Part shown: piece after piece, positions 466-22,417 of the stretch
How positions within the stretch are numbered: position 1 is the stretch's first letter
Layout: the number at the start of each line of letters is the position of its first letter
NCBI GenBank assembly: GCA_048938105.1
Contig: JBHLMN010000003.1
Coordinates: forward strand, 329,994 to 393,993
DNA: 64,000 nucleotides
From: Promethearchaeota archaeon
Lineage (GTDB): Archaea; Asgardarchaeota; Heimdallarchaeia; Hodarchaeales; Hodarchaeaceae
Reading direction: 5' to 3'
The notes under the pieces: model-generated
Database searches by the model: none
What the model was told of the DNA's origin: nothing
Seen by the model: the letters and a program-made list of their open reading frames with translations, nothing else
Position numbers and translations under genes: made by a program

Positions 466-497
466 TAATAAAATTGTTTTTACGGAGTAAGACAACA

Positions 498-3934: not shown

Positions 3935-6364
3935 TCAATTTGAGAATTCTAGAGCATGTTCAATAGCCCAAATGCTTAATGGCCGCATATACATACTTGC
4001 CCGATAATTACCTGTGACATCCCAGGCTTCAGGCGTACGGTACCAATATCCTCTGTTATAAGTGCTATTAGTGTTATAGACAACATTATATATTCCCCAC
4101 GCTGTATTCCATGCTTCATCTATCATTCCACGGTGAATCATAAATGCGGTAAGGGCATAAGTTGTACCTGTCCATACTTCTTGAGATTGTTCACTAGTTT
4201 TGTCAATGTCACCATCAGGTCGCATACCATTAACAGCTCCCATTTGCCCATCAGCAAATTTAAGAACATTATAGTTGTAGATTTTTTGTAAGGCCGATAA
4301 AATATGATTTTCGGAGACTATAGGCTCCAAATCTGTGGCGTCACAATACCATTGACCGCCTAATTGATCAGCCATTATACTGTCAGAATAAGATCCCTCA
4401 CTTGCATCATAGTTATAATACTCTCCATTCCAGAGTTTATCCTCATATGAAGCTTTTCCTCTTACTAACCAACTCGTATACAGATTTACGTTATCTGTAT
4501 CTCCAATTATTATTCCCATTTTAATCGCTGCCTCTAAAGCTGCTAACCACAAACCAGCACAATAAGCACTTTCATTTGACATCTTCCATTCATCATAGGT
4601 CTGGTCTGGAACCCCTTCATTTTCAGGTAAATGATCTCCATCGGTATCATAATTGTGTAAATAATCTAGTGCCATAACAACAGATGTCCAACCATCCTCC
4701 ACTAATGTAGTATCATTGGTAAAGAAATAATCACGATAAAGTTGTAAGACGAATTTTGAGTTCATATCTTTCCACATATTGGAATCACGCCACCGATAAG
4801 AATTGACAATGAACCAGGGATCTTCATAACCAATATCATGAGGGCAGCTTCCAGGAACTTTACGTGGACCAGTCTCATCAGTAGCCCATATTGTCGTAAT
4901 TGTTGGGTCATCTATAGGTACAGCTGCAATAAAATCTCTGATTGCTTGTTTTTGCAACTCAGGCCATAGCTGAATTAATGAAAAAGAGGCATAATAAAGA
5001 ACATCAAAGGTATTATACATACTATAGTCAAAACACTCAAGAAAACCAAATCGGCCAATCCCTTCTTCAAGAGGCCCTTCACTAACAAGACCATTTTCCC
5101 AAAACGTACCTCCATCAACTAAATAGTATAACTCGTTGAATAAAGCTGTCTTATACCAATTAGGCCGACTTTCGTCTTCTAGAATTGGTTGTTGCCAAGA
5201 ATCAATGGCTTCTTCCCAATTTGTATAATTAGCTAAAGCTTCAGAGGCAATGGCTAATGCATTTCTTCCAGTAGTTCCAAAAAAACGAGTGTACCGTTTA
5301 TACCATTGCCTATTCCAGTCAAATTCAGTTATGGGGAAGTCCCAAGCAAGAATAAAGGGGATTATTTGCTGCTCACTAGGATCTAATTCTAATGTAACCG
5401 ATAAAGCTGCACCAATATCTTCTAATATGTCCGCATGATCAGTATTGTTAATGTTGTCTAATTTACCATCTGTTGCGAAATCTTGCCAAACATCAGAACC
5501 TCCACTACTTACAGAAAAGCATGAACGATAGCTGATAGTCCAATTGGGGCTATTCTGTGTTACCAAAGCGAATGAGCCATCCCATTCTTCCTCTACCGTC
5601 TCTTTATCGCGAGTAAGGATAATTCCAGTCATATTTTTGTCATCAGAGGTGAAGGCGTAGTTATACTTATCCATAAGTGGATGATCAGTATTACAAATTG
5701 ACCCTACAAGGTTCTGCCATGTGAACATCAATCCTACGATTATTGACTCATTTGTTGGATTCTCAACGGCCCATTCAAATACTCCAACAGGATAGCTACT
5801 TTCTTTGTAATTTTTCGGGATAATAGGCGAGAACTGTTTTTGCAGCAAGTTCACAGGTAGCTCTTTCCAATTGTAATCATACCATGCTTTAGGAAATAAT
5901 CCATAATATGTCCCTGCGCCGACTGGCATATCCCAATTCCATTTTAGGTCTGTGTCTGATTCCTTTAACGATGAAAGAACATGTGCATCAGATTCATCTT
6001 TTTGGGACACAAAAACAGAGAACTGATTTGCATCTATTGTTTCAAATTTATGTTTCCCAATTTCTAGATGCCAACGAGCGAAATCTCCACGATAGGTTCG
6101 GCCAATGCTTCCTGCACCTAAACCTCCAAGTGGTACTCCGCCCCATTCTTTATCATCTATGATCCAATAACTAGTTTTCGGCTTCCCAGTTTGACTGTAA
6201 GGAACTCCAATTCCTCGTGACCATGCCACCTTAGGTATGGTACTAGGAATAGATACTGGCCCCTCTGGTGAGCTAGGCTGATATAAAGTTAACAAAACCA
6301 CGCCAATAGCGCTTATTAGTAATAATATTGTGATTATGCCAGCTATTATTATATTTCTTATCAT
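3935..6364 (-). CDS. GH116 beta-glucosidase / non-lysosomal glucosylceramidase family, N-terminal membrane anchor
   Basis: GVPLGGLGAGSIGR, SSYPV, LFNELYYLVDGG, LECFDY (nucleophile E), WKDMNSKF, PDQTYDEW (acid/base D), YMRPLSIWA. Hydrophobic residues ~4-27. Confidence 0.9.
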   Translation of the reverse strand: MIRNIIIAGIITILLLISAIGVVLLTLYQPSSPEGPVSIPSTIPKVAWSRGIGVPYSQTGKPKTSYWIIDDKEWGGVPLGGLGAGSIGRTYRGDFARWHLEIGKHKFETIDANQFSVFVSQKDESDAHVLSSLKESDTDLKWNWDMPVGAGTYYGLFPKAWYDYNWKELPVNLLQKQFSPIIPKNYKESSYPVGVFEWAVENPTNESIIVGLMFTWQNLVGSICNTDHPLMDKYNYAFTSDDKNMTGIILTRDKETVEEEWDGSFALVTQNSPNWTISYRSCFSVSSGGSDVWQDFATDGKLDNINNTDHADILEDIGAALSVTLELDPSEQQIIPFILAWDFPITEFDWNRQWYKRYTRFFGTTGRNALAIASEALANYTNWEEAIDSWQQPILEDESRPNWYKTALFNELYYLVDGGTFWENGLVSEGPLEEGIGRFGFLECFDYSMYNTFDVLYYASFSLIQLWPELQKQAIRDFIAAVPIDDPTITTIWATDETGPRKVPGSCPHDIGYEDPWFIVNSYRWRDSNMWKDMNSKFVLQLYRDYFFTNDTTLVEDGWTSVVMALDYLHNYDTDGDHLPENEGVPDQTYDEWKMSNESAYCAGLWLAALEAAIKMGIIIGDTDNVNLYTSWLVRGKASYEDKLWNGEYYNYDASEGSYSDSIMADQLGGQWYCDATDLEPIVSENHILSALQKIYNYNVLKFADGQMGAVNGMRPDGDIDKTSEQSQEVWTGTTYALTAFMIHRGMIDEAWNTAWGIYNVVYNTNSTYNRGYWYRTPEAWDVTGNYRASMYMRPLSIWAIEHALEFSN

Positions 6365-6389: not shown

Positions 6390-8834
6390 TTAGCTTATAA
6401 TTCCTTTAATTGTAACTTTTTTCTTTCTTATAAATGAAAACGGAATGATATTCCCTTCAATCGGTTGACCATCGACTTCAAGTATAATCGAATTCCCCTC
6501 ACCAGTACGTTCAAGAGAAATGCTGTAATCCACCCCACGGAAGGTACGTGTTGCTTTAAAGCTGGACCAGGATTTTGGAATGATGGGTACGATCTGTAAT
6601 CCAGTATAGGTAGGTCGAATCCCAAGAATCCAATTTGTAATGGCAATATAATTCCAAGCAGCGGTACCAGTTAGCCAAGAATTCTTAGCTTCCCCGAAAT
6701 TTGGGGCATCTCGCCCAGCGATCATCTGAGCATATACATATGGTTCACAACGATGTAGTTCACTAATGTCTTCCCTGACAGAAGGATTAATTCGCATGTA
6801 ATAATCATATGCCTTATCTCCGTGCCCGATTATTGATTCAGAAATCATTATCCACGGATTTGTATGACAAAAAATACTCGCGTTTTCTTTATACCCTGGA
6901 GGATATGACGAAATTTCTCCTAAATGTAAATAATACTGCGAATAGGGAGGTTGATGGAGCATGATACCATGTGGTGTAGCTAATAGTTTCTCCACAGCAG
7001 TTAGCGCCTTTTCCGCTCTGCCATCATTAAGCCCTATTCCAGCTAAGATGCAGAATCCCTGAGGTTCGACGAAAATCTGCCCCTCTTTGGACTCATGTGA
7101 CCCCACCTCATTCCCAAAGTCGTCGTAGGCGCGTAGGAACCAGTCTCCATCCCAACCATATTTGTTAACAGCCTTCTTCATCTTTTCAATCCAAGTGAGA
7201 TATTCTGTTACCTCCTCCTCCAAATCACATTCTTGGAGAATCTCAACTAATTCTTTTGCTGCAAGTACGAACAGCCCTGCAATAAATATTGATTCGGCTA
7301 CTTTTCCATCTTTGTTTGTTGTTGTCTGAAAAGACTGGTCTGGTTCTTCAGAAAAACAGTTCAGATTCAAACAATCATTCCAGTCTGCGCGGCCAATAAG
7401 TGGTAACTCATGAGGTCCCAACCGTTTCTGTGTATAAGAAAGACTTCTCTTTAAATGGTCTAAAAGCTTTTCTTCTGTTCCAGGTTGATTTTCATATACT
7501 ACAAGTTCATCGAGTATATTAAAATCACCTGTTTCCTTCAGATATGAGGCTACACTCAAAATTAGCCAGAGGGGGTCATCATTGAAATTACTACCAATGT
7601 CATCATTGCCTCGTTTTGTAAGAGGTTGATATTGGTGATATGCACCACCTGTTTTCAATTGCGTGGCAGCTAAATCCAAAATACGTTCCCGTGCTCGTTC
7701 AGGGACCATATGGATAAAACCTAACAAATCTTGATTAGAATCACGAAATCCTATACCACGTCCGATTCCAGACTCAAAGAATGAGGCTGATCGTGACAAA
7801 TTAAAAGTGACCATACACTGATAGGCGTTCCAAATATTAACCATCCTATTTGTATGAATGTCGGGCGTTTCAACTTGGAATTTTTCTAATAAGCTATTCC
7901 AATATGAATTAAGGTTGTTAAAGGCCCTTTCCACATTATACTTATCCAAATATTTAGCGATGATTTTTTTTACGGTTTTTTTATTGATCGTCTGTGATCC
8001 AGGTGGATCAAACTTTTTGTTATGAGGATTCTCGTGGTACCCGAGTATGAAGATGATTTGCTTTGTTTCATTGGGATCTAGAGAAATCTTAACATGATGT
8101 GATCCTATTGGTGCCCAACCATGAGCTTCAGAATTATAAGAATGACCTCTTTCTACTACCACAGGTTTTTCCCAACTCCGATAAGATCCTAGAAAGTCGT
8201 CACGCTTAGTATCGAATCCTTCTAGAGGTTCTGAACATGCGAAATACGCAAAATGATTTCTTCGTTCACGATATTCTGTTTTGTGATATATTATGTTATT
8301 TTCAATCTCTACCTCCCCAGTATTATAATTTCGTTGGAAGTTGGTAAAATCATCCAAAGCATCCCACAAACAAAATTCAATACAGGAAAAAATTGACAGA
8401 TTTACTTGCCTCTCCTGCTGGTTTTTTAATGAAAGTTGCCAAATTTCTAGATTCTCACTTAAAGGGACAAAATATCGTGTTGTTGCTTCAATCTTATTGT
8501 ACGTGGAACCGATGATAGAATATCCTAGCCCGTGACGACAAGTGAAATTCTCCAAATTGTTACGAGTGGGTTGCCATGAAGGAGACCAAAATTCTGTTGT
8601 TTTGTTATCTCGTAAATAAATGTATCGTCCACCAGAATCCAAAGGAACATTATTATAACGATATCGAGTTATACGTCTTGTTTTTGCATCTTGATAAAAT
8701 GAATATCCCCCTGCGGTATTAGAGATAATTCCAAAATATTTTTCGCAGCCTAAATAGTTAATCCAAGGCAATGGAGTATCAGGTTGAGCAATGACATACT
8801 CTCTAAGATCATCATCAAAATAACCGTACCGCAT
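6390..8834 (-). CDS. cbp: GH94 cellobiose phosphorylase
   Basis: MRYGYFDD..REYVI..P.TP.PWINYLG, HKTEYRERRNH, SRSASFFESGIGRGIGFRDSNQD, FNDDPLW, ADWNDCLNLNCFS, GYKENASIFCH, EAKNSWLTGTAAW; 814 aa. Confidence 0.9.
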   Translation of the reverse strand: MRYGYFDDDLREYVIAQPDTPLPWINYLGCEKYFGIISNTAGGYSFYQDAKTRRITRYRYNNVPLDSGGRYIYLRDNKTTEFWSPSWQPTRNNLENFTCRHGLGYSIIGSTYNKIEATTRYFVPLSENLEIWQLSLKNQQERQVNLSIFSCIEFCLWDALDDFTNFQRNYNTGEVEIENNIIYHKTEYRERRNHFAYFACSEPLEGFDTKRDDFLGSYRSWEKPVVVERGHSYNSEAHGWAPIGSHHVKISLDPNETKQIIFILGYHENPHNKKFDPPGSQTINKKTVKKIIAKYLDKYNVERAFNNLNSYWNSLLEKFQVETPDIHTNRMVNIWNAYQCMVTFNLSRSASFFESGIGRGIGFRDSNQDLLGFIHMVPERARERILDLAATQLKTGGAYHQYQPLTKRGNDDIGSNFNDDPLWLILSVASYLKETGDFNILDELVVYENQPGTEEKLLDHLKRSLSYTQKRLGPHELPLIGRADWNDCLNLNCFSEEPDQSFQTTTNKDGKVAESIFIAGLFVLAAKELVEILQECDLEEEVTEYLTWIEKMKKAVNKYGWDGDWFLRAYDDFGNEVGSHESKEGQIFVEPQGFCILAGIGLNDGRAEKALTAVEKLLATPHGIMLHQPPYSQYYLHLGEISSYPPGYKENASIFCHTNPWIMISESIIGHGDKAYDYYMRINPSVREDISELHRCEPYVYAQMIAGRDAPNFGEAKNSWLTGTAAWNYIAITNWILGIRPTYTGLQIVPIIPKSWSSFKATRTFRGVDYSISLERTGEGNSIILEVDGQPIEGNIIPFSFIRKKKVTIKGIIS

Positions 8835-9066: not shown

Positions 9067-11244
9067 ATGATTGAAGTATATAAGGATCCAACATATGCAT
9101 TAAATACAAGAACAAAGGATTTATTATCGAGAATGACGATTGAAGAAAAAGTAGGTCAGATGTGTCAACTTGATCTCAGTCACGATCCTAAAATCTGGAT
9201 AAAAGAAAGAAATATTGGTTCATATCTTAATGTGAAATGGAAAGATACTCAAATCCTTCAAAAAATGGCTTTAGAAACACGGCTTGGTATCCCTCTTATT
9301 TTTGGAATCGACGCGGTACATGGACATTGCTTTCATGATGGAGCAACAGTATTTCCAACGCAATTAGCAATGTCCTGCAGTTGGAATCCTGATTTATTAG
9401 AAGAGGTAGCTCGGATAACAGCAAAAGAAGTGATATACACAGGTATTCACTGGACTTTTTCTCCTATTCTCTGTATTGGACGAGACCCTCGTTGGGGTCG
9501 TATTGATGAAACTTTTGGAGAAGATCCCTTTCTTATAGGAAAATTAGCTTCAGCAATGGTTAGGGGTTATCAGGGGAGGAACTTATCTGATCCCGAAAGC
9601 ATTCTCGCCTGTCCAAAACATTTTGTAGCTTATGGTGAAACAATTGGAGGGAGGGACTCTGCAGAAGCAGAAATCTCAAGGAGAAAATTGAAAGATATCT
9701 TTTTACCACCATTTAAGGAAGTAGTGGAGTCTGGTTGTGGTTCCATTATGGCAGGTTATCACTCAATAGATGGAACACCCTGCTCTGCAAATTCATGGTT
9801 ATTAAGAGATGTATTAAAAACAGAATGGGGATTTAAAGGTTTCATTTTGACTGATTGGGCTAATGTAACTTGGTTGCATGAATCACAATTTGTTTCTCCT
9901 ACATTAGCCAATGCGGCTGAAATTGCTCTTCTTGCTGGAAATGATATGATAATGTCAACCCCTGAATTTTATGATATCATAATCAAAGGAGTTAGAGAGG
10001 GTCACATTGATGAAAAACTCATTGATGATGCCTGTTCGCGAATCTTGAAAATTAAATTCCGCCTAGGTCTCTTTGAACAAAAAGGATACCCTATCACTGA
10101 TCTAAATCCCAAAATTATTGGGTGTACGTTACATAAAAAGAAAGCTTTAGAAGCAGCACTTCAGTCATTAGTCTTATTAAAAAATAACAATGATCTTCTT
10201 CCTCTAAATGAAAATTTAGGTAAGATTGCAGTATTAGGACCTAATGCAGATAATTCTATAGCTCAACTTGGCGACTGGTCCTTTGGAAAAGTTTTAAATT
10301 GGCCTCCAAAAGATAAAGATATTATAAATGGCCATAAAGCCAACACAGTTACTATTCTTGAAGGGATAAAAGCACGAGTTAAAGATAAGAGTTCTATATT
10401 GTATGCTAAGGGTTGTGATATATTAAACCCAGAAATAAAAGATATACAAAAAGCCACTTTTGTAGCTCAGGAAGCTGATGTAGCAGTAGTAGTTGTAGGG
10501 GATAGCCTTAGTTTAGTTGGAGAACATAAGGATCGAGCTTCTCTTGATCTTACAGGTGCACAAAATGAACTCTTAAAAGCTGTTAAAACGACAGGAACCC
10601 CTTTAGTTGTAGTTCTTATAAATGGAAAACCCTTAACAATTCCATGGGTAGCAAAAAATGCTGATGCAATTCTTGAAGCATGGAATCCTGGGAATGAAGG
10701 AGGAAATGCAGTTGCTGCTGTACTTTTCGGGGATTATAATCCTTGTGGTAAGCTGACGATAAGCTTTCCTCTACATATTGGGCAGTTGCCTGTTTTTTAT
10801 AATCAGCTGCCTGGGTGGCATGGAGGTAAATATGTAGACTTGGAGGCTGACCCTCTCTATCCATTTGGCTTTGGGTTATCTTATACTTCCTTTGAATATA
10901 AAAATCTTAGTTTATCAAAAACTAAATTGCAAAAAGATGAAATTTTGTATGTTTCCATGGATATTAAAAATACAGGGCATCGTAAAGGAGTCGAAATTGT
11001 ACAACTTTATGTAAATGATAAATATAGCTCTGTAACAACTCCAATTAAGGAATTAAAAGGCTTTAAACGTGTTGACATACAACCTGGAGAAGAAAAACAC
11101 GTTAAAATAGTATTACCCATATCTACATTGTCATTGATTAATTCTGAAGGCGTAGAATGTGTTGAATCTGGAGAATTTGAAATTATGGTTGGTTGGTCAT
11201 CAAGGGTTGAGGATCTTTTCAAGAAGACTATTGTTGTTTATTAA
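9067..11244 (+). CDS. GH3 beta-glucosidase (BglX-like), cytoplasmic
   Basis: DAVHG, RDPRWGRIDETFGEDP, KHFVAYG, ILTDW nucleophile, SLVLLKN, LYPFGFGLSYT, C-terminal Fn3-like domain. Confidence 0.9.
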   Translation: MIEVYKDPTYALNTRTKDLLSRMTIEEKVGQMCQLDLSHDPKIWIKERNIGSYLNVKWKDTQILQKMALETRLGIPLIFGIDAVHGHCFHDGATVFPTQLAMSCSWNPDLLEEVARITAKEVIYTGIHWTFSPILCIGRDPRWGRIDETFGEDPFLIGKLASAMVRGYQGRNLSDPESILACPKHFVAYGETIGGRDSAEAEISRRKLKDIFLPPFKEVVESGCGSIMAGYHSIDGTPCSANSWLLRDVLKTEWGFKGFILTDWANVTWLHESQFVSPTLANAAEIALLAGNDMIMSTPEFYDIIIKGVREGHIDEKLIDDACSRILKIKFRLGLFEQKGYPITDLNPKIIGCTLHKKKALEAALQSLVLLKNNNDLLPLNENLGKIAVLGPNADNSIAQLGDWSFGKVLNWPPKDKDIINGHKANTVTILEGIKARVKDKSSILYAKGCDILNPEIKDIQKATFVAQEADVAVVVVGDSLSLVGEHKDRASLDLTGAQNELLKAVKTTGTPLVVVLINGKPLTIPWVAKNADAILEAWNPGNEGGNAVAAVLFGDYNPCGKLTISFPLHIGQLPVFYNQLPGWHGGKYVDLEADPLYPFGFGLSYTSFEYKNLSLSKTKLQKDEILYVSMDIKNTGHRKGVEIVQLYVNDKYSSVTTPIKELKGFKRVDIQPGEEKHVKIVLPISTLSLINSEGVECVESGEFEIMVGWSSRVEDLFKKTIVVY

Positions 11245-11508
11245 GAATGTACGTAATTTCTTTTTTGTAACTTCTATTAATTTTCTATCAATCCACATTG
11301 ATCAGATTAAACTGCTTATTTATGTCCAAAAAAGCTTAGGCAATTTCTTATTTTAACATCATATTTAGTACTACAGTAAGAATACGATAAAAATGAATTA
11401 TAATTCAATATGATATATATTTAACATGGTAAAATACCCTCTAAGTTCACACCTCTTGAAATAAGATCACATGTATTCATGATATGTATCCAAACATTTT
11501 ACATGCCA

Positions 11509-11525
11509 GAAAAGATTTTAAATTG
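11509..11525 (+). promoter_or_regulatory. putative archaeal BRE/TATA promoter of the ABC importer operon
   Basis: GAAAAGATTTTAAAT (purine-rich BRE-like plus TTTAAA) ~70 nt upstream of the SBP start. A near-identical GAAAAGACTTTTAAAA occurs at ~13922 upstream of the permeases. Confidence 0.4.
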
Positions 11526-11592
11526 AAGAAGAAAATGATGTCGGTTTACTGAAATCCTATTTTTTTTCAGTAAAAAAAATGAAAGAAGGAAT

Positions 11593-13749
11593 ATGACTTT
11601 GAAACACAAAACTAGAATTAATATACTAGTATTTCTTATTTTCCTATCTATGTTAGCCTTTCCTTTCAATTCTACAGCGCAAGGCAAAACAGCGGTGCCC
11701 GCAGCTACTACTGTAGATTATACCACAGGATTCAACGTGAAACTAGGTGACTGGCCTATTCTGACTGTGTATGGTTGGAGTGATTCGATGATGCAGAGCA
11801 CATTACTATCAACTTACTTCACTGATCTGGGAATTTCGACGACTCCAGCATTCATTGAGTATGGAACTTATGTCAATGATTTCAATGCAATGGACTTCGA
11901 ACTCATGAATTTCTGTATGGGATTTGGTCCAGCTAATCGACCATTCGCCGCATATGGTGCATTCACAGGTCAGGCAGGTCAATGGGCCAACTATACAGGA
12001 TGGTACAGCCCAGAATTTGTGAACCTTCGGACTCAATGGGAAACTATTGACCCAACGAATACCACAGGAGAGCAAGCAATCGCCTCTAAACTACAGGAAA
12101 TTATAGCAAGTGAGATGCCATCTATTCCTATGTTTCCAAATGGATATTGGTATTCGTTTAATAAGAAGTATTGGGAGAATTGGCCCACTAAAACAAATAA
12201 CTGGATCCATGTAAGTGCACCCTGGAATACTGGTGGTGCTGGAGTGATGATGATGTATTTACTCAACCTTACATCAACTGGAACACCTGCACCAATTACA
12301 GGACAAGGTGCCTCAACTGACGCAGTAGTAATGCCAGCACGAGATGAGATTATTTGGTCTAGCGGTTATTGGCAAGGCCCCACGGGTTGGAATCCATTCT
12401 TTTGGGAAGAAGCATTTGGATCCTTTATCATGTACCAACCACTTTTTGACATGAATTACGAGAAAGGTGAACTGATGCCAATATTAGGCGAAAGCATGGT
12501 CTGGAAAGATGAGGGGTCGTGTCTCGAGATTACACTTCGAGATGAAGCAGAATGGTCTGATGGTACTCCTGTAAATAGTCAAGATGTTAACTACACATAC
12601 AACTACCTACTTGCTCCCTTTAGGTTTGGAGATTTCTCAACGCGAGTAAACAAGACGGTGATTGTAGACGATAAAACAATCCAATTCTATATGAACCCAA
12701 AATACAACTACAGCCAAATTATTTGGGATGGCTTTATTGGATACAATAAAATCGGCCCAGCACACGTATGGGAAGAGCTTGTCCCATGGTGGCGAGATGT
12801 AGGATTCGCTCAAGATTGGGGCGGTTGGGAACTGCAGGAATTCAAAAACAAATGGCTGGAAGATATTACGCTACCAAACGATACTAAAATTCCATTCCCA
12901 GCGGAATGGAAGGTTTGTTCTGGACCATACCATCCTTACTTCGTCTCCGATACCTTCGATAGGCACATTTACATAAGAGACGATGATTGGTGGGGTAACG
13001 ATGTCTGGCAAGCGCCAGAAGCCAAGTATATGGGGCAACTACATTATGCTACCAATTTCGCGGTGAATCAAGCGTATGCAGCTGATGAGATCGATTGGTT
13101 TGGTGGGTATTATCCCCGTATTTGGGAGCTCATAGCTGATAATCCAAATATTGATACTTGGACTGAAGGTGCTGAACCCTATTTCCTCCCGATTTCTGGA
13201 ATGGTTGAAGTAGTTCCAAACCACCTCAGATATCCGTTTAACGAGTATTGGTTAAGGGAAGCATTAGCATACGCCATCAATTATTACGACATGTCTGAAG
13301 TCTCTTGTAGTGGTTACCTAGAGAGAGCTCGCATGGGCTACCTTGACGATAGAAGCCCAACACAAGCATACCTTTACGATAGTGCAGTTGAAACGAAGTA
13401 TCATATCGATTATAACCTAACGAAAGCAATAGAAATCTTAGAAGAATATTGTTTCAAACATACTGATGGAGCATGGTACACAAAAGATGTTCCTGAAGAA
13501 TATCAATCCATGCTTGGACACGATGGTAACCCACTTAAAGACGAACTTGGAGTTGAAGAAACATCGGAGACTACTGCTACTAAGACCGCTACCAAAACCG
13601 CTACCAAAACCGCTACAAAAACCGCTACAAAGACCAAAACTAAAACCAAAACTTCAACAAGTCAAGCTGGTCCTGGTTTCGAGATTCTCGTTATTGCTAC
13701 AGCAGCATTTTGCATGACATTAGCCTATAAACGACGAAGACGAACATAG
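11593..13749 (+). CDS. ABC transporter solute-binding protein, family 5 (cello/laminari-oligosaccharide-binding type), circularly permuted, with Thr/Lys linker and PGF-type C-terminal anchor
   Basis: Signal peptide; LRDEAEWSDGTPVNSQDV, CSGPY, RDDDWWG, DEIDW..YPRIWEL, EPYFLP, LREALAYAINY, plus YGWSD and MPSIP..WY...KYWENWP placed N-terminally. Ends GPGFEILVIATAAFCMTLAYKRRRRT. Confidence 0.9.
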   Translation: MTLKHKTRINILVFLIFLSMLAFPFNSTAQGKTAVPAATTVDYTTGFNVKLGDWPILTVYGWSDSMMQSTLLSTYFTDLGISTTPAFIEYGTYVNDFNAMDFELMNFCMGFGPANRPFAAYGAFTGQAGQWANYTGWYSPEFVNLRTQWETIDPTNTTGEQAIASKLQEIIASEMPSIPMFPNGYWYSFNKKYWENWPTKTNNWIHVSAPWNTGGAGVMMMYLLNLTSTGTPAPITGQGASTDAVVMPARDEIIWSSGYWQGPTGWNPFFWEEAFGSFIMYQPLFDMNYEKGELMPILGESMVWKDEGSCLEITLRDEAEWSDGTPVNSQDVNYTYNYLLAPFRFGDFSTRVNKTVIVDDKTIQFYMNPKYNYSQIIWDGFIGYNKIGPAHVWEELVPWWRDVGFAQDWGGWELQEFKNKWLEDITLPNDTKIPFPAEWKVCSGPYHPYFVSDTFDRHIYIRDDDWWGNDVWQAPEAKYMGQLHYATNFAVNQAYAADEIDWFGGYYPRIWELIADNPNIDTWTEGAEPYFLPISGMVEVVPNHLRYPFNEYWLREALAYAINYYDMSEVSCSGYLERARMGYLDDRSPTQAYLYDSAVETKYHIDYNLTKAIEILEEYCFKHTDGAWYTKDVPEEYQSMLGHDGNPLKDELGVEETSETTATKTATKTATKTATKTATKTKTKTKTSTSQAGPGFEILVIATAAFCMTLAYKRRRRT
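13573..13653 (+). repeat. 12-bp coding tandem repeat (TATK x5) followed by TK repeats
   Basis: ACYGCTACHAAR x5 at 13573-13632, then ACC AAA ACT AAA ACC AAA ACT. Confidence 0.9.
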
Positions 13750-13757
13750 GAATAAAG

Positions 13758-13790
13758 CCTCTCCCCCCTTTCTTTTTTTCCCTTTTTTTA
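13758..13790 (+). terminator. pyrimidine/oligo-T terminator after the SBP gene
   Basis: cctctcccccctttctttttttcccttttttt just after the stop codon. Confidence 0.55.
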
Positions 13791-14167
13791 ATAAAATTAA
13801 ATCTCATGATAATTCACCTCAAATTTGTAAGTAAAATTTACTTTAACCCAATTAAAGGAGTTAATGTTATCATCATGCCACTTTTTTTGATGTGTAAAGA
13901 ATATAATTGTAATGGAACAATGAAAAGACTTTTAAAACCGCAAATAAGAAAGTGGAGGCGATAGATAGTTATCAGATCATCTTTTCGTTCTTTACTTATG
14001 TTCTAACAGGAATGTGACTGAATAAGTGTACTTACTCATCCCTTAATCATTATTCAAGATAAAACAAATTTCCTTGGATAGCGAAAACTCTTAAGAAAAA
14101 AAAGAAAAATTAACCCAAAAAGTGATTATAATTCCTTAGATGAGATATAAAATTATAGGTGAGAAAT

Positions 14168-15295
14168 TTGTCTTCTTCAGTAGAGCAAATAACAGAGATA
14201 AAAGAGAAAAAAAATGTATTACTAAGAATAAAAAGCACTTTTTCCCATTCTTATGCCAAATTCATAATGAAAAAAGCTGGTTTTTATCTACTTGTGATTT
14301 TTTGTGCCCTTACACTCACATTCCTCATTCCTAGGTTAATGCCTGGTGATCCTACTGACAGACTACTTCGGCCTCCTCCGAATGTCAGTGACCCTAAACA
14401 GCTGGAACAATACTATAAGATGAAAGACCTTATAATAGCCTATTATGGTCTTGATAAACCTATATTCCCTGATCAATTTGTGGAATTCTGGGATCATATG
14501 TTCCATTTGGATTTGGGAACCTCTTATAGTCTTTATCCAGTTTCTGTTGTGGACGCCATGATACCACGGATTTGGATGACACTCATCCTCGTGATTCCAG
14601 TATTATTCATTAGTTTCTTCCTGGGTAATTGGATTGGAGGTAAAGCAGCCTTTGGAAGTTTAGAAAAAGGATATTCAGCCCAATTAGCTGACTTAGTATA
14701 CTATGTGAATATGATCCTGCAATCTGCTCCCTTCTACTGGCTTGCTTTAATCGTTTATCTGTATTTCGTGATCGAGCTGAGAAAGCAAGGTGTTACTATT
14801 TTCCCAATTAATCACCCAGGAGGAGTGGGTCCAGAAATGATCCCAAGTGTCTCAATTGAATATTTCATTGAGCTTTTACGTCATTATGCGTTACCTTTTA
14901 TCACATTACTTGTTACTTTTACTGGTGGTTGGGCAACAGGTATGCGAGCTATGACTCTTTATGAAATGGAATCAGAATATTTGTTATATTCTGAGCAAAT
15001 GGGATTTAGGAAAAAGAAGTTACAATCATATGCCCAAAGGAACGCCATTTTACCTCAATTTACTGGATTAAATTTAAGATTTAATGATTTAGTAGGTGCG
15101 ACTATATTAACTGAAGCCATTTTCGGTTGGCCTGGTCTTGGTTCCATGCAATTAAACGCAATCATGATGCTGGATTTTCCATTAATAATTGGCACTTTTA
15201 TAATTACTTTGGTTATTGTGGTCTTTGGTAATTTTATCGTTGATATTACATATGGATTTATAGATCCTCGCATAAGAACTGGTCATGGAGGTTGA
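14168..15295 (+). CDS. Dpp/Opp-type ABC permease (DppB-like)
   Basis: FLIPRLMPGDP, YGLDKP, DLGTS, RNAILPQ, TEAIFGWPGLG, DITYGFIDPRIR; TTG at 14168 follows GGTGA. Confidence 0.9.
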   Translation: MSSSVEQITEIKEKKNVLLRIKSTFSHSYAKFIMKKAGFYLLVIFCALTLTFLIPRLMPGDPTDRLLRPPPNVSDPKQLEQYYKMKDLIIAYYGLDKPIFPDQFVEFWDHMFHLDLGTSYSLYPVSVVDAMIPRIWMTLILVIPVLFISFFLGNWIGGKAAFGSLEKGYSAQLADLVYYVNMILQSAPFYWLALIVYLYFVIELRKQGVTIFPINHPGGVGPEMIPSVSIEYFIELLRHYALPFITLLVTFTGGWATGMRAMTLYEMESEYLLYSEQMGFRKKKLQSYAQRNAILPQFTGLNLRFNDLVGATILTEAIFGWPGLGSMQLNAIMMLDFPLIIGTFIITLVIVVFGNFIVDITYGFIDPRIRTGHGG

Positions 15296-15299
15296 ATAT

Positions 15300-16151
15300 A
15301 TGTTGGATTTGATAAAACAAAATCGAGTATTCGCTTTTGCAATAGCTAGTTTTATCCTCATAATTGGCTTTGGATTTATAGTACCATACTTTACTAGAGA
15401 TCCACTGGATCCTATTTTGGATAGGTTTGGAACTAGAGTCATTTTTCGACCCCCATCACCAAATTATATCCTGGGAACTGATGATTGGGGAAGAGATGTC
15501 TTTGCTCAACTTGCTCATGCCACACGTAATTCTTTAGAAATCGGTTTTGTTACAGGAATCATGGTTGCAATAATTGGTGTTACTATTGGAACTGCTGCAG
15601 GCTATTTAGGAGGTTGGATTGATGAAATACTTATGTTTCTTACTAATGTCGTTCTTGTTTTTCCTGTCTTTCCAATGTTATTAGTTCTCTCAGCTCATCT
15701 AGAAGAAAGATCTATGTTCATGGTTGCAGCAATTCTTGCTATTACAGGTTGGCCTTGGGTAGCAAGAGCTTTAAGAGCCCAGGTTCTCAGCTTAAAGGAA
15801 AGAGAATTTGTGAATTTATCACGAGTCTCAGGGATGAGTAATATAAGAATAGCTTTAGCAGAAATTTTACCAAACATGCTTGCTTATATTGGATTGGTCA
15901 TAGCAATAGTTACTGGCGGAGCTATTGTCGCTGAAGCAGGAATTAGCATGTTAGGCCTGGGTCCAAATCCTCTAGTAAACCCTACATTGGGAGGAATGCT
16001 CTATTGGGTCATTCAGAACGAATCGATAAGATCTAATTACTATTGGTTGTATTTTCCCCCAGGGATCATTTTGACCTACTTTTTTGTTGACCTTTACATT
16101 TTACATAGGCATATGGACGAATTGTTCAATCCTAGATTGAGAAGGCGATAA
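15300..16151 (+). CDS. Dpp/Opp-type ABC permease (DppC-like)
   Basis: LGTDDWGRDVF, AGYLGGWIDE, WPWVARALRAQVLSLKEREFV, EILPN, FNPRLR; ATG 15300 after GGAGGT. Confidence 0.9.
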   Translation: MLDLIKQNRVFAFAIASFILIIGFGFIVPYFTRDPLDPILDRFGTRVIFRPPSPNYILGTDDWGRDVFAQLAHATRNSLEIGFVTGIMVAIIGVTIGTAAGYLGGWIDEILMFLTNVVLVFPVFPMLLVLSAHLEERSMFMVAAILAITGWPWVARALRAQVLSLKEREFVNLSRVSGMSNIRIALAEILPNMLAYIGLVIAIVTGGAIVAEAGISMLGLGPNPLVNPTLGGMLYWVIQNESIRSNYYWLYFPPGIILTYFFVDLYILHRHMDELFNPRLRRR

Positions 16152-16155
16152 CTAA

Positions 16156-17139
16156 ATGTCTGACTTACTCTTGGACGTAAAAAACCTAAAAGGTTATTAT
16201 AAGGGTGTTTTTGGTGTTGTTCATGGAGTAGATGATGTTACATTTACGCTTGAAAAAGGGGAAATTGTTGGTCTTGCTGGAGAATCAGGTTGTGGCAAAT
16301 CCACTTTAGCTGAACTCATTACAGGAACCCCCAGACCCCTCTTACATTATGAAGAGGGCACGGTTATTGTTGATGGATTTAATATTTATGAAATTAACAA
16401 GGAAGACTTGAGAACAGAGGTAAAGTGCAAGCGGATGTCATATGTCCCCCAAGCATCATTAGAATCTTTAAATCCCGTGAAAAAGATAAAGAATTTCATC
16501 ATGGATGTGGTACGAGAACGAACTGGTAAAAAAGGAGAAAAGAAGAAAATTCAAAAGCTTGCAGCAGACCATTTTGCCAGAGTTGGCCTAGATAAAGATG
16601 TTCTTAATCGCTATCCCCATGAACTTAGTGGTGGGATGAAGCAGCGGGTTGTAATTGCGATTTCTACTTTATGGAATCCAACACTTTTAATTATTGACGA
16701 ACCAACAAGTGCTCTTGATGTCACCTCACAAAAACGTATGGTAAAAATGCTATCGGAAGTAAAAAAGGAAGGGATTATTCAAAGCATCTTATTTGTCTCC
16801 CATGATATCGCTACTCTCAGACAAATATGTGATAGAATCATCATCATGTATTGTGGTGAAATTGTCGAAACAGGAAAGATGGGAGATATAATCAATAATC
16901 CACTTCATCCCTATACGAAGGGATTAATTTCATCCATTGTTTCATTTAATCCAGACGGTACTCGTCCAGCTGAATTGAAAAGCATTCCAGGAGAACAACC
17001 TGACTTAAGGAACCCTCCATCTGGTTGCCGATTCCACCCAAGGTGTTATAGTGCTGGCACCCACTGCAAAGAGTATGAACCCCCAATCTATACCCCATCT
17101 GGTAAAGATCATCAAGTGAAATGCTGGTTATTCAAATAA
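16156..17139 (+). CDS. ABC ATP-binding protein (DppD-like)
   Basis: Walker A GESGCGKST, YPHELSGGMKQR, DEPTSALD, C-terminal PSGCRFHPRC. Confidence 0.93.
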   Translation: MSDLLLDVKNLKGYYKGVFGVVHGVDDVTFTLEKGEIVGLAGESGCGKSTLAELITGTPRPLLHYEEGTVIVDGFNIYEINKEDLRTEVKCKRMSYVPQASLESLNPVKKIKNFIMDVVRERTGKKGEKKKIQKLAADHFARVGLDKDVLNRYPHELSGGMKQRVVIAISTLWNPTLLIIDEPTSALDVTSQKRMVKMLSEVKKEGIIQSILFVSHDIATLRQICDRIIIMYCGEIVETGKMGDIINNPLHPYTKGLISSIVSFNPDGTRPAELKSIPGEQPDLRNPPSGCRFHPRCYSAGTHCKEYEPPIYTPSGKDHQVKCWLFK

Positions 17140-17155
17140 TCGAATTGGTGTTCTC

Positions 17156-17959
17156 ATGACCGCAAATGAATTGCTTCTAAAAGTTGACAAATTAACAAAA
17201 ATATATTCATCTGGTCTATTAAGGACAATCCAAGTGATTGGAGCAAAAAATGTATCTTTTAATATTAAAAGAGGTGAAATTATTTCTCTTGTAGGTGAGA
17301 GCGGAAGTGGAAAATCGACAACAGCCAATATGATCTTGAAGCTAATCAAACCAACAAGTGGACATATTTTTCTTAATGATAAAGATATTTTTTTAATTAA
17401 AAATAGAAAAGAATACTATAAAAGAGTACAAGTGATATTTCAAGATCCATATTCCTCCTTTAACTTAGTATACAAAATTGATCGTATGTTAAACCAAGCT
17501 TTTAACCTTCTCGACACTCATTTCTCTAAAGCCACAAAACAGGAAATTATTGAAGATACTTTGGCGCAAATAGGTCTAAATGCAGATGAAGTTTTAGGCA
17601 GGTACCCTCATCAACTTAGTGGAGGGCAGCTACAACGATTTCTCTTAGCAAGAGTCTTAATTATCCGACCTGACTTGTTAATTGCTGATGAACCAACTAG
17701 TATGATTGATGCCTCGTCACGAGCAGGGATCCTGAATCTTCTTGAAGATTTAAAGGACGATACAGGTTTATCTGTGCTGTTCATTACACATGATATTGCT
17801 CAAGCACAATACATATCCAGCAAGGTTTGTGTGATGAAAAACGGGGAAATTATTGAAAAAGGTCTATGTGAGAAAGTTTTTGCTCATCCACAACATCAAT
17901 ATACAAGAGATTTACTGGCGAGTATACCTGATCTGCATAATAAATGGGGGGATATATAG
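17156..17959 (+). CDS. ABC ATP-binding protein (DppF-like)
   Basis: GESGSGKST, FQDPYSS, YPHQLSGGQLQR, ADEPTSMID. Confidence 0.93.
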   Translation: MTANELLLKVDKLTKIYSSGLLRTIQVIGAKNVSFNIKRGEIISLVGESGSGKSTTANMILKLIKPTSGHIFLNDKDIFLIKNRKEYYKRVQVIFQDPYSSFNLVYKIDRMLNQAFNLLDTHFSKATKQEIIEDTLAQIGLNADEVLGRYPHQLSGGQLQRFLLARVLIIRPDLLIADEPTSMIDASSRAGILNLLEDLKDDTGLSVLFITHDIAQAQYISSKVCVMKNGEIIEKGLCEKVFAHPQHQYTRDLLASIPDLHNKWGDI

Positions 17960-18005: not shown

Positions 18006-19106
18006 TTGAAAAACCGAAATTTAGCTTATATGATTATTTTTATTGGAATAATCATGAGTATTGGAATAATACAAATTAGATGTGTAAAGGCAGTAAGAGC
18101 AAACAGAAATGTCAAAAGGATTGGAAAATTTGATGACGGAGGCAAAGGTTTTGGTGTTTTTGTGAACAATTCTATCGCTTACTTAGCTGATGGTTATGAA
18201 GGATTAGATACTGTAAACATTAGCATCCCGGAGGAGGCGTACAAATTAGGAAAGTATAATGATTATGCTGGCCAATCCAGAAGTGTTTATGTAAGTGGCG
18301 CTTATGCGTATGTAGCTGAAGGTGAACGGTATGGTTTAGAGATTCTCGATGTATCCGATCCTACTAAACCCATCCAAGTAGGAGAATATAATGAATTTGA
18401 TGGTGAAGCTAGAGATGTTGTTGTTATTAATTCTTATGCCTTTCTCGCTGATTTTAAGAATGGAGTTAAAATTATTAATGTAACTGATCCGACCAATCCG
18501 ACAAAAGTTGGACAATACGACGATGGTGGTGAGGCTTGTGGAATATATATTAATAAAACACTTGCTTATATTGCAGATGGAAACGATGGCCTTGAGATCT
18601 TAAATATAAGTGATCCACTTAATCCAGTGGAAATAGGCCAGTGCTATGATGATAGTGGCAGAGCTACTGGGATTTTTGTCAGTGGTTCTTATGCGTTTGT
18701 GGCTGATTTTGACAATGGGCTTGAGATCATTAATATAAGTGACCCAACTAATCCAATTGAAGTCGGGGAATGCTATGATGATAGTGGATTAGCTAATTCC
18801 GTATTCGTTGAAGGTTCCCTTGCTTATATCGCTGATAATCAAGATGGACTAGAAGTGATTGATGTCAGTAATGTCACTAATCCTGTTGAAATAGGTCAAT
18901 TCTATGAAGAATATGGCCTTGTCGGCATGGCAATGGATGTTGTTGTTTACAACTCCTTTATTTATGTAGCTCATGGATCACAAGGATTAGAAATTCTGAA
19001 GTTTGAAACATATTCCCCTCCCCCAGATATTATCCCATTTGTCGTTGTTGGAGCTGTAGTGATTGGTGTAGGAGTTTGGTTTTTCAAAGGAAAAAAAGAG
19101 GAATAG
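18006..19106 (+). CDS. LVIVD-repeat beta-propeller surface protein with N-terminal signal and C-terminal TM
   Basis: ~7 repeats of V.V.G.YAY.AD...GLEI..ISDP.NP..IG.Y (~43 aa); hydrophobic ends, KGKK tail. Confidence 0.85.
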   Translation: MKNRNLAYMIIFIGIIMSIGIIQIRCVKAVRANRNVKRIGKFDDGGKGFGVFVNNSIAYLADGYEGLDTVNISIPEEAYKLGKYNDYAGQSRSVYVSGAYAYVAEGERYGLEILDVSDPTKPIQVGEYNEFDGEARDVVVINSYAFLADFKNGVKIINVTDPTNPTKVGQYDDGGEACGIYINKTLAYIADGNDGLEILNISDPLNPVEIGQCYDDSGRATGIFVSGSYAFVADFDNGLEIINISDPTNPIEVGECYDDSGLANSVFVEGSLAYIADNQDGLEVIDVSNVTNPVEIGQFYEEYGLVGMAMDVVVYNSFIYVAHGSQGLEILKFETYSPPPDIIPFVVVGAVVIGVGVWFFKGKKEE

Positions 19107-20050: not shown

Positions 20051-22417
20051 CTATCCCATCTCAATATTAATTGTATGTTTTTTCCCTACTTCTAATATTG
20101 ATAATTGATTGCTTTCTAGTGTTTTTTTCCCAATATTCACCTTTTTTACCCCTTTAGACACATGGTTTGGATTTTCAACCTTTATATCATACGTTGCATC
20201 CCTAAAACGTCGGATAACACGGAAATTAGTCCATTCATTAGGAATACATGGATCTACCTTCAAACCATGAAATGTTGGTTGTATTCCAAGAATTGATTCC
20301 ATGACAACCTTCATTGACCACGCTGCTGTTCCTGTAAGCCAGGAATTTTTCGCTAATCCGAATTTTGGATGGTTTTTTCCAGCAATCATCTGTGAATAGA
20401 CATAAGGTTCAGCTTTATGAATCTCTCCCATCCTGTTCTTCGTAGGTGGGGCAATTTTCTTGTAATATTCATAAGCTCGCCCCCCTCTTCCTAACTTACA
20501 CTCAGCAATGATCAACCACGGATTAGTATGGCAGAATATTGAAGCATTTTCTTTTAATCCAGGAGAAAAAGTAGTTATTCCACCCAATTCTGGATAATAC
20601 TCGGTAAAAGGAGGGGCAAGAAGCATGACCCCGTATTCCGTGTCAAGATGCTTTTTTACAGAGTCTAGACATTGATAAGCTCTGTCTTTGGTGGCAACAT
20701 CACTGATAATAGCCCAAGTTTGAGTATTGAGGAAGATTTTTCCTTCCTTACATTTTGAACTTCCTACAGGTTCACCAACATCAGTAAAAGCTCTAATATA
20801 CCATTCTCCATCCCATGCTACCTCGTTTACATGATTTCGTATTTCACTAGCCAGATTATTAAATGTTCTGGAATCCTGTTCATTCTCATATTCTTTTGTA
20901 AGTGCTGCTAAATCTAATAGAGCTTTATGAAATTGCATTGCTACCCAAACGCTTTCACCAGCATTATTTGGGCCAGGGAGGCTAAAAGGATCATTCCAAT
21001 CTGCGGTACCTATCAATGGCATACCATGTTTTCCCATGTTATTTTGGGTGAATTCAATTGCCCTTTTGAGATGGTCGTACAAAGAAGCATTAGATCCTTC
21101 AATAAATGATATTTCTTCATCTAAGATAGATATATCTCCAGTTTCTTTGATGTATTCAGAAACAGCTAAAATCAACCATAAATGGTCATCACTAAAGAAT
21201 TTCATGCTTTTCTTAGTGTATTCAGGAAAAGCACCTTTACCAGAGAGAGGGAAATATAAATGATAGACTTTACCACTTTCAAACTGGTTTTTAGCTAGAT
21301 CTAGGAGTCGTTGACGGACTTTTTTTGGGAGAACATAATTAATTGCCATTGCATCTTGGCTACAATCTCTAAATCCCATTCCTCTACCTATACCTGTTTC
21401 ATATAAAGACACATATCGCGACCAGTCAAATGTGACTTTACATTGATAGGGATTCCAGATATTAACCATTAAATTAAGTTCATTATCAGGAGTGTCTACT
21501 ACAAGGGCTTCTAGGTGATTAATCCAAGAATTTGCTAATTTTTTAAGCGCAGATTGTACCTTTAATTGGTCTATATATTTCTGAACATATTCTTTCGCTT
21601 CAGCTTCTTCATTACTAACGCCTAGAATGAATATAATATTTCTTTCCTCGTGAGGATCAATAGTTAAGGCATTACAAGTAGCAGCAATAGGATTTCCACC
21701 AAAGGCTTGAGAATTAAAACACGAACCTCTTTCTACACCTAGAGGATTAATTTCTGACCTGTATTGACCAATAAAAACTTCTCGGTCGCAGTCGTAACTG
21801 CTTATATCTCCATTTGATGAAAAAAAGGCATATCCAGTACTCCTATCAAAAAAAGAGTAATAAATAATGCCATCCTTGAATTTTGCTTCAGCCACGTTTT
21901 GGATATACTGAAGATCATTTTGATCTCCTAACGCTCTCCATAAACAGAACTCTGCATAAGAAAAAATACTCAAGTTCTTTCTTTCAGATCTTGTATTTTT
22001 CAATGACAACATCCATATTTCTAAGTTCTCTTTTAAGGGAACAAAATAAATGATTTCACTTTCAATTCCCATAAACGATGATTTGACTTTAGTATATCCC
22101 AAGCCATGTCGGCATTCATAACTATCCAGATCCCTAGGTACTGGTTGCCAAGTAGGAGACCAATATTGAGAAGTTTCATTATCTCTGATATAGATATACC
22201 TTCCAGGCCTATCCATTGGTAAATTATTATATCTATATCTTAATAATCTTCGATCTCTTGGATCTATATGGAAACTATACCCTCCACCAGTGTTCGAAAC
22301 CATAGCACAATATTGACTATTACTTAAATAATTAATCCAAGGAGTAGGGGTGTCTGGTCTCGTGATCACATATTCTTTTGTATCTTGTGAAAAATATCCA
22401 TACTTCAAACTATTCAC
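20051..22417 (-). CDS. GH94 glycoside phosphorylase (cellobiose/chitobiose phosphorylase-like, specificity uncertain)
   Basis: YGYFS...EYVITRPDTPTPWINYL, WSRYVSLYETGIGRGMGFRDCSQD, SDDHLW, ADWND, GLKENASIFCH, AKNSWLTGTAAW. Confidence 0.85.
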   Translation of the reverse strand: MNSLKYGYFSQDTKEYVITRPDTPTPWINYLSNSQYCAMVSNTGGGYSFHIDPRDRRLLRYRYNNLPMDRPGRYIYIRDNETSQYWSPTWQPVPRDLDSYECRHGLGYTKVKSSFMGIESEIIYFVPLKENLEIWMLSLKNTRSERKNLSIFSYAEFCLWRALGDQNDLQYIQNVAEAKFKDGIIYYSFFDRSTGYAFFSSNGDISSYDCDREVFIGQYRSEINPLGVERGSCFNSQAFGGNPIAATCNALTIDPHEERNIIFILGVSNEEAEAKEYVQKYIDQLKVQSALKKLANSWINHLEALVVDTPDNELNLMVNIWNPYQCKVTFDWSRYVSLYETGIGRGMGFRDCSQDAMAINYVLPKKVRQRLLDLAKNQFESGKVYHLYFPLSGKGAFPEYTKKSMKFFSDDHLWLILAVSEYIKETGDISILDEEISFIEGSNASLYDHLKRAIEFTQNNMGKHGMPLIGTADWNDPFSLPGPNNAGESVWVAMQFHKALLDLAALTKEYENEQDSRTFNNLASEIRNHVNEVAWDGEWYIRAFTDVGEPVGSSKCKEGKIFLNTQTWAIISDVATKDRAYQCLDSVKKHLDTEYGVMLLAPPFTEYYPELGGITTFSPGLKENASIFCHTNPWLIIAECKLGRGGRAYEYYKKIAPPTKNRMGEIHKAEPYVYSQMIAGKNHPKFGLAKNSWLTGTAAWSMKVVMESILGIQPTFHGLKVDPCIPNEWTNFRVIRRFRDATYDIKVENPNHVSKGVKKVNIGKKTLESNQLSILEVGKKHTINIEMG

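Follow-up and report, generated by a model that had tools for sequence, protein, structure and literature searches.

A recently arisen circular permutant of a Thermotoga-CBP-like family-5 oligosaccharide-binding protein in a Heimdall-group archaeon

Most natural circular permutations are old and shared by a whole family, which puts the permuting step itself out of reach of study. Among the substrate-binding proteins (SBPs) of ATP-binding cassette (ABC) transporters, the only published natural permutant that we found in the literature is TpMglB-2 (Tp0684) of Treponema pallidum, a tethered, sugar-binding 'Type Ic / Cluster Bc' glucose-binding lipoprotein in which the first three N-lobe strands of the cluster B (MglB-like) fold have been moved to the C-terminus; its authors asked whether tethering drove the permutation (PMC4990184). 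For family 5 (cluster C) we found no description of a permuted protein in the literature. A canonical member of this family is tmCBP of Thermotoga maritima, which binds cello- and laminari-oligosaccharides via six stacking tryptophans, Trp15, Trp380, Trp383, Trp426, Trp510 and Trp535 (PMC3850815); the structure of E. coli DppABCDF shows the binding protein docked, cleft down, on the two membrane subunits (PMC12136057). Here we analyse a stretch of 64,000 nucleotides (the window) from a Promethearchaeota archaeon of the Hodarchaeales (assembly GCA_048938105.1, contig JBHLMN010000003.1, positions 329,994 to 393,993), in which the open reading frame (ORF) at 11593-13749 encodes a true circular permutant of a tmCBP-like family-5 SBP. 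It is very likely that this protein is the permuted, in-place-derived receptor of the adjacent Dpp/Opp-type importer in a Heimdall-group beta-glucan locus.

That the protein is a genuine circular permutation was claimed in a first-pass annotation made from the letters of the window, which predicted two non-collinear matches to family-5 SBPs. Comparison with all PDB sequences by phmmer yielded exactly this pattern: residues 246-396 and 438-623 align with 4-155 and 170-358 of 2o7i, and residues 49-233 align with 370-558. The equivalent of 2o7i 370-558 stands before the equivalent of 2o7i 4-358, in violation of the collinear order of family 5, and the same non-collinear pattern is repeated with 4jsd, 4pft and 1vr5. 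The top PDB matches are the T. maritima cellobiose/laminarin-binding protein (2o7i, 4jsd) and the mannoside-binding TM1223/TM1226, with a best E value of 3e-44. The Pfam profile PF00496 (SBP_bac_5) scores 88.4 bits against a gathering cut-off of 32.4, with residues 294-637 placed on positions 2-290 only of its 368, and close relatives of canonical order align to both blocks at 52-62% identity.

The ORF runs uninterrupted on the forward strand and encodes 718 residues with a single signal peptide and a single anchor, and the blocks, the linker of about 20 residues rich in T, P, G and A, the repeat and the tail all lie where the first-pass annotation had placed them. The order along the protein is signal peptide, C-block, 20-residue linker, N-block, Thr/Lys stalk and C-terminal anchor. 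The Sec-type signal peptide (residues 1-29; 11593-11679) has a basic n-region followed by a hydrophobic helix, residues 6-19 in the model, and is likely to be cleaved after the motif S-T-A. The new mature N-terminus (residues 30-46; 11680-11730), modelled with a low predicted local distance difference test score (pLDDT), corresponds to the second half of a canonical surface loop: in tblastn, residues 453-470 of the canonical relative P0006 align to it, immediately before the NVKLG strand. The C-block (residues 47-226; 11731-12270) is the C-terminal segment of canonical relatives and matches 2o7i 370-558; it is 62% identical to residues 470-649 of the canonical protein P0003 and is modelled with pLDDT above 94. 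The linker (residues 227-246; 12271-12330), which connects the old C-terminus to the old N-terminus and coincides with a dip in pLDDT, is without counterpart inside canonical relatives. The N-block (residues 247-652; 12331-13548) is the N-terminal segment of canonical relatives and matches 2o7i 4-358. It closes with a helix-hairpin ending in EEYCFKHTDGAWY, followed by about 22 residues homologous to the first half of the canonical loop, so that it does end, as had been proposed, in the loop ahead of the KLG strand. The cut site is the loop between the second-lobe helix-hairpin and the NVKLG strand, and the old termini are joined via the linker. Beyond the N-block, the Thr/Lys-rich stalk (residues 653-692; 13549-13668), disordered in the model, includes (TATK)n encoded by a tandem repeat with a period of 12 nt and 5 copies (13576-13635), and the direct repeats of the stalk span 13561-13656. 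The C-terminal sorting/anchor signal (residues 693-718; 13669-13749) consists of GPGFE, a hydrophobic helix at 696-717 in the model, RRRR and the stop codon.

An AlphaFold2 model, for which canonical relatives were entered in the alignment as separate N-block and C-block rows, has a mean pLDDT of 85.6 and a predicted template modelling score (pTM) of 0.82. Residues 45-655 are almost all above 90, and the sole internal dip, to 58 at 231-240, falls within the linker. A control model of canonical P0003 reached a pLDDT of 87.3 and a pTM of 0.82, and the helices and strands of the two models correspond one-to-one with their order swapped. Sequence-ordered superposition by VIA-align brings only residues 247-632 of the permuted model onto 2-366 of 2o7i (352 residues, Z 22.1, root-mean-square deviation 3.1), as against 40-657 onto 2-555 for the canonical control (529 residues, Z 31.4); Foldseek gave the same pattern. 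The model predicts that the three-domain family-5 (cluster C) fold is kept, with both blocks assembled as in tmCBP, and both hinge crossings are left intact by the cut, judging from the order of the elements and the usual layout of the family-5 fold.

The closest relatives of the permuted protein are canonical. In a collection of 5.8 billion proteins, the ten closest are from Heimdall/Hod/Hermod-type Asgard metagenome-assembled genomes (MAGs) plus a single fragment with the label Dehalococcoidia. Identity over the longest local alignment is 47-58%, and every one of them runs canonically from signal through N-block, C-block and stalk to anchor. Two genus-mates, the genomes G009 and G011, keep the operon order GH3, SBP, permease 1, permease 2, ATPase 1, ATPase 2 and LVIVD, with an SBP of canonical order. 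In the window this operon comprises, beside the SBP and all on the forward strand, a GH3 beta-glucosidase (glycoside hydrolase, GH; 9067-11244; Pfam Glyco_hydro_3, Glyco_hydro_3_C and Fn3-like; 80-82% identical in G009/G011), two DppB/DppC-type permeases (14159-15295 and 15285-16151; BPD_transp_1 in each), two DppD/DppF-type ATPases with oligo_HPY (16156-17959; ABC_tran and oligo_HPY) and an LVIVD-repeat protein at its end (18006-19106; Pfam LVIVD in 5 stretches). The permeases and ATPases are syntenic in G009/G011 and the position of the LVIVD gene is kept there; the LVIVD protein that closes this sugar-uptake operon is 42-44% identical to its counterparts.

Since G009 and G011 hold a canonical SBP in the same operon slot, the permuted gene is the positional orthologue of canonical genes, and because these positional orthologues in sister species are canonical, rearrangement in place is the simplest reading. 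It also fits the ends of the protein, where the second half of the loop is matched by the new N-terminal leader and the first half by the new C-terminal residues; in canonical relatives this loop is intact and variable in length, up to about 40 residues. A maximum-likelihood (ML) gene tree places the permuted protein (P0001) as sister to the clade of the genus-mates' proteins with a Shimodaira-Hasegawa-like approximate likelihood ratio (SH-aLRT) support of 98, on a branch of 0.31 that is not longer than the sister paths. A survey of 399 genomes of the phylum, with two candidates scored per genome, and of 5.8 billion clustered proteins turned up no further permuted protein of this clade. These comparisons suggest that a canonical-order ancestor most likely underwent the swap in place, and the rearrangement is evolutionarily recent. 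The most likely route would begin with an internal or tandem duplication, after which the outer copies were lost. Direct repeats that might mark the rearrangement at the junctions are limited to the stalk repeat and pairs at chance level, and tblastn with canonical relatives detected no trace of an older canonical copy in the intergenic DNA that flanks the gene.

The predicted binding site looks unaltered by the permutation. Four of the six tmCBP tryptophans are kept in the phmmer alignments, one in the N-block (W260 for Trp15) and three in the C-block (W62 for Trp380, W186 for Trp510 and W211 for Trp535); the other two stacking positions are occupied by S65 and M109, as in the canonical Asgard orthologues. 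Because ligand-binding tryptophans lie in both blocks, the site needs both of them correctly assembled. The SBP is adjoined directly downstream by a Dpp/Opp-type transporter made up of the two BPD_transp_1 and the two ABC_tran/oligo_HPY genes. The permuted protein is probably still functional; it would most likely bind beta-linked gluco-oligosaccharides (cello- or laminari-) and, when loaded, would deliver the sugar cleft-down to the two permeases as usual, by analogy with DppA on DppBC.

The SBP is surrounded by a beta-glucan utilisation locus spanning 474-27165 of the window. Upstream of the operon it includes GH2 (474-3080), SDR (3169-3873), GH116 (3935-6364) and GH94 (6390-8834) genes, and downstream a second GH94 gene (20051-22417), a GH17-like gene (22611-23987), GH16 (24066-24935), a DeoC-type aldolase (25017-25733) and GH5 (25951-27165). 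An 18-nt A-rich motif with TTATAA occurs at 11389-11406 and at 14117-14134, within both long intergenic regions, about 190 nt upstream of the SBP start and about 25 nt upstream of the start of the first permease. These motifs may be archaeal BRE/TATA promoter elements (BRE, transcription factor B recognition element), with the SBP on its own transcript. A scan with a sigma-70 promoter model and for terminators stayed at chance level, such a scan not being applicable to an archaeon.

The first-pass annotation treated the case as singular, which does not hold: permutations in family 5 are many. A search of 1.84 billion representatives gave 1464 hits; of the best 150, 128 are canonical and 4 permuted. 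P0018 (659 aa) is cut in the same loop, has a PGF-type tail and lies on a 254-kb contig together with two GH94 genes and a transporter like that beside the SBP; P0027 (686 aa), also cut in the same loop, has a T-stalk with an anchor and adjoins GH94 and again the same kind of transporter. These surroundings of the two relatives fit the beta-glucan substrate proposed for the SBP. The protein of Thermococcus celericrescens and Thermococcus sp. 21S7 (611 and 639 aa) is cut inside the C-block, bears a CGP-CTERM anchor and belongs to an operon with GH1, a transporter and GlmA. The bacterial lipoprotein P0130 (600 aa) is cut just before the helix. The two Thermococcus proteins, WP_083500652.1 (L015:8001-9836) and WP_240924298.1 (P0162), are permuted family-5 proteins from cultured species; their operon, with GH1, ABC transporter, SIS and GlmA genes, is chitobiose-like, and RefSeq labels the protein as an ABC transporter substrate-binding protein.

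In an ML tree of 46 proteins whose blocks had been rearranged into one order, P0001, P0018 and P0027 fall into three separate, strongly supported canonical clades, so that the order must have changed at least three times. A tree constrained to unite the three is worse by 415 log-likelihood units, and a single origin of their permutations is rejected by the approximately unbiased (AU) test (p 3.6e-15). On this sequence-based phylogeny, the same-loop swap has arisen independently in at least three lineages, including that of P0001. The nearest relatives of P0018 all have canonical order, among them two Lokiarchaeum ossiferum proteins that are 57-59% identical to it, and the linker across the old termini has about 20 residues in P0001 versus about 4-8 in P0018 and P0027. 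On the contig of P0018 (L013:1-345), a helix-turn-helix (HTH) domain fused to an Arf/Rag-type small GTPase is encoded a few genes away; as such a fusion is typical of Asgard archaea, it supports an Asgard (Loki-type) host for this protein.

Permuted family-5 genes are also frequent in the genome from which the window comes. A Pfam scan indicated that at least 14 of its approximately 17 family-5 genes are permuted with other cut points, near profile positions 145, 214 and 282, which makes canonical order the exception among the family-5 genes of this genome. Such genes outside the window are located at C39:21158-25150, C6:25210-26895, C37:1331-2947, C37:29996-31651, C41:151614-153278, C2:29347-30864, C27:71089-74631, C28:130374-134114, C14:48878-50359 and C27:236487-237623. 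The three examples checked are L020:712-2637, cut at the hinge relative to AppA (1xoc), L022:680-2608, and L023:115-2229, which has a cut of the same kind as that of the SBP at 11593-13749 in a distant subfamily. A further gene, L025:1095-6479 on the reverse strand (C27:283094-288478), encodes a 1794-aa protein with a signal peptide, two complete permuted family-5 units in tandem (64-635 and 645-1227), two copies of a domain of about 240 residues, a T-rich stalk and a GPGFEF-type anchor; Pfam reads its middle as one canonical-order unit. This tandem fusion is an intermediate of the kind that duplication and truncation require, and it supports the plausibility of that route.

The first-pass annotation described the tail as (TATK)5 followed by PGF, a transmembrane segment and RRRR. 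The repeat, the GPGFE motif, the helix and RRRR are all there, but the tail is not a curated PGF-CTERM: TIGR04126 found no match to it at E values up to 10, and models of PGF-anchored proteins match it only weakly with their ends, as TIGR04281 does (21.5 bits versus a cut-off of 325). Heimdall-CTERM (NF045529) scores 16.7 bits on this tail (E 0.007), below its cut-off of 24, and passes on the tail of canonical P0003 with 35.6 bits; the GPGFE motif is common to both tails. The sub-threshold match suggests an anchor that is Heimdall-CTERM-like rather than PGF-CTERM. In a search of the genome for an exosortase/archaeosortase (PF09721), the best match scored 23.3 bits, below the cut-off of 25.7, and contains an internal TGA; it does not confirm such a gene. 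As regards topology, the proposal that the permutation relocated the tether is borne out, in that stalk and anchor now exit the fold from the hairpin loop and not from the canonical C-terminus. The canonical orthologues have a flexible stalk of about 35-40 residues and a C-terminal anchor of the same kind as the permuted SBP, so the permutation changes the point at which the stalk exits, now the second lobe, and not the type or reach of the tether. We consider the relocation more likely tolerated than selected, an adaptive origin being possible but doubtful, and we likewise rate simple tolerance above the further inference of the first-pass annotation that the move changes how sugar is presented to the permease.

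Such an adaptive re-tethering would mean that the swap was selected because moving the tether from the first to the second lobe alters orientation or dynamics at the permease, an idea of the same kind as that raised by the authors of TpMglB-2 (PMC4990184). It is consistent with the independent cutting of one loop in three C-terminally anchored proteins and with P0130, whose cut in this region comes a few residues sooner and shifts its N-terminal lipid anchor to that lobe as well. Moreover, divergence from G009/G011 within the operon is greatest in the SBP and both permeases. However, a flexible stalk of about 35-40 residues in both forms should decouple the attachment point from docking geometry, the great length variability of the loop in canonical relatives suggests that it may be merely the most permissive cut site, and the other permutants of the genome are cut at quite different places. 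The asymmetry in rates includes the internal branch and also touches ATPase 2 and the LVIVD protein. We regard selection on the tether as doubtful for this gene, and it is with slightly greater reserve still that we raise the broader idea of a recurrent, ongoing permutation of C-anchored archaeal family-5 SBPs with a preferred hairpin-loop cut, driven by selection on tether position or on co-translocational folding order. The uneven divergence of the operon also enters into the question of origin. In pairwise comparison with G009/G011, the permeases are 56% and 62-63% identical and the ATPases 75-78% and 70-71%; GH3 and ATPase 1 lie at 75-82%, whereas the SBP, permeases, ATPase 2 and LVIVD lie at 42-71%, and for these latter genes G009 and G011 are 61-89% identical to each other. 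The ratio of the branch of our genome to that of G009 is about 1.5 for GH3 and about 1.2 for ATPase 1 (about 1.2 and about 1.5 against the G011 branch), compared with values from 2.2 up to about 12 for the two blocks of the SBP, the permeases, ATPase 2 and LVIVD. As the branch of our genome includes the internal branch, this three-taxon test of SBP-permease co-evolution is ambiguous, and we do not count it as support. The unevenness could reflect a change of rate after the permutation, or mosaic or foreign ancestry. The permuted gene, perhaps together with the permeases, might accordingly have been acquired laterally, already permuted, from an unsampled lineage, replacing the canonical orthologue. 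Such a replacement would fit the three-taxon branch lengths, but gene order and orientation are the same as in G009 and G011, the tree places P0001 beside the genus-mate clade without a long branch, the undiverged ATPase 1 sits amid diverged genes and so misfits one contiguous replaced segment, and the databases and phylum genomes surveyed hold no other permuted clade member among the candidates scored. Lateral replacement is, in our view, unlikely.

In-place permutation of a gene that still works remains the reading we prefer, and certain findings weigh against it: the disproportionate divergence of the SBP, both permeases, ATPase 2 and LVIVD just described; the known occurrence of the permuted form of this clade in one species-level lineage only (this genome and near-identical strains, in 2-3 samples); the lack of a tandem-fused N-C-N-C intermediate of the clade among relatives of 1258-3590 aa, which is weak evidence; and the packing between the blocks in the model, which rests mainly on the learned prior of AlphaFold because most alignment rows covered one block only. 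The single lineage would also suit a recently rearranged, non-working gene heading for decay, as would three clustered non-synonymous differences near the end of a contig from sequencing run X2. Decay is nevertheless quite improbable, given that all 718 codons form an unbroken frame complete with signal, stalk and anchor, that residues invariant in canonical relatives are kept in both blocks, that the P0001 branch has no excess length, that this is the sole SBP gene of the transporter operon, that the AlphaFold2 model is confident, and that change in the strain of run X4 is mostly synonymous (9 codons synonymous, 4 non-synonymous). The window comes from a MAG of 5.85 Mb in 65 contigs with an estimated contamination of 7.25%, which might invite the suspicion that assembly had joined two paralogous SBP genes into a chimera, a misassembly at the junction having been named by the first-pass annotation as a point to check. 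Contigs from independent samples, however, support the permuted order at inner and outer junctions. Run X1, which may be the source sample, yields a Logan contig that matches 11400-13900 with zero differences; a 1718-nt contig of run X2, a different sample, covers 11476-13193 and bridges the junctions of signal with C-block and of C-block with N-block; and contigs of run X4, from a different study and about 97% identical, cover 11461-11728 and 13040-13584 and carry the signal-to-loop and N-block-to-stalk joins. Runs X4 and X5 contain parts of the gene only, and the stretch 11729-13039 that they leave uncovered is uninformative either way. One X4 contig terminates at 11728, beside the block boundary, but it already holds the signal-to-loop junction of the permuted form. 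With three independently assembled contig sets matching the window across the junctions, no close SBP paralogue found in the genome as a possible partner for a mis-join, and joins that are in frame and placed exactly at structurally sensible points, a chimera is extremely improbable; the permuted order is no assembly artefact.

The occurrence of permuted and canonical proteins in the same operon slot within one genus provides matched natural pairs for research on folding and evolution. Such pairs could be used to test how well a 600-residue, three-domain, hinge-bending receptor tolerates re-threading and how important the position of the tether is in ABC importers. If selection on the tether were true, the SBP and its canonical orthologues would form a natural pair for direct measurement of the selective effect and of permease co-adaptation. 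The hairpin loop also suggests itself as a permissive place to cut in engineering sugar biosensors on a tmCBP-like scaffold. For annotation, it is relevant that profile models report only about two thirds of such permuted proteins.

Among described proteins, the best sequence and fold matches to the permuted SBP are tmCBP (TM0031; 2O7I, 3I5O, 4JSD, 4JSO) and TM1223/TM1226 (1VR5, 4PFT, 4PFU, 4PFY), with VIA-align Z scores of 22-24. Like it, these Thermotoga proteins are oligosaccharide-binding representatives of the peptide-type family 5, and their genes likewise lie next to those for a Dpp/Opp-type transporter and beta-glucan hydrolases; the Thermotoga proteins are canonical and soluble in the periplasm, whereas the permuted SBP has a stalk, an anchor and a 20-residue linker and, in tmCBP numbering, begins at ~367 and ends at ~360. 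The canonical orthologues (P0003 of G009, the G011 gene and P0006-P0009), annotated as Heimdall/Hodarchaeales MAG proteins, share with it the operon position, signal type, stalk and a Heimdall-CTERM-like kind of anchor, for which the permuted tail scores below the model's cut-off; they have the N-then-C order with the cut loop intact, and in the permuted SBP this order is reversed. TpMglB-2 is likewise a natural circular permutant of a membrane-tethered ABC-transporter SBP. It belongs, however, to cluster B/type I, whereas the permuted SBP matches cluster C/family 5 only, and the cut point differs; the permutation of TpMglB-2 adds a fourth hinge crossing, while in the permuted SBP the two hinge crossings are untouched; and the former permutation is old and family-wide, the latter recent and accompanied by canonical orthologues. 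P0018, P0027, the Thermococcus proteins, P0130 and the other permutants of the genome are family-5 proteins like the SBP and mostly C-terminally anchored. What is particular to the SBP at 11593-13749 is its place in the tmCBP-like sugar-binding subgroup, where canonical order is the rule, the recency of the event, and the convergent cut in the same loop.

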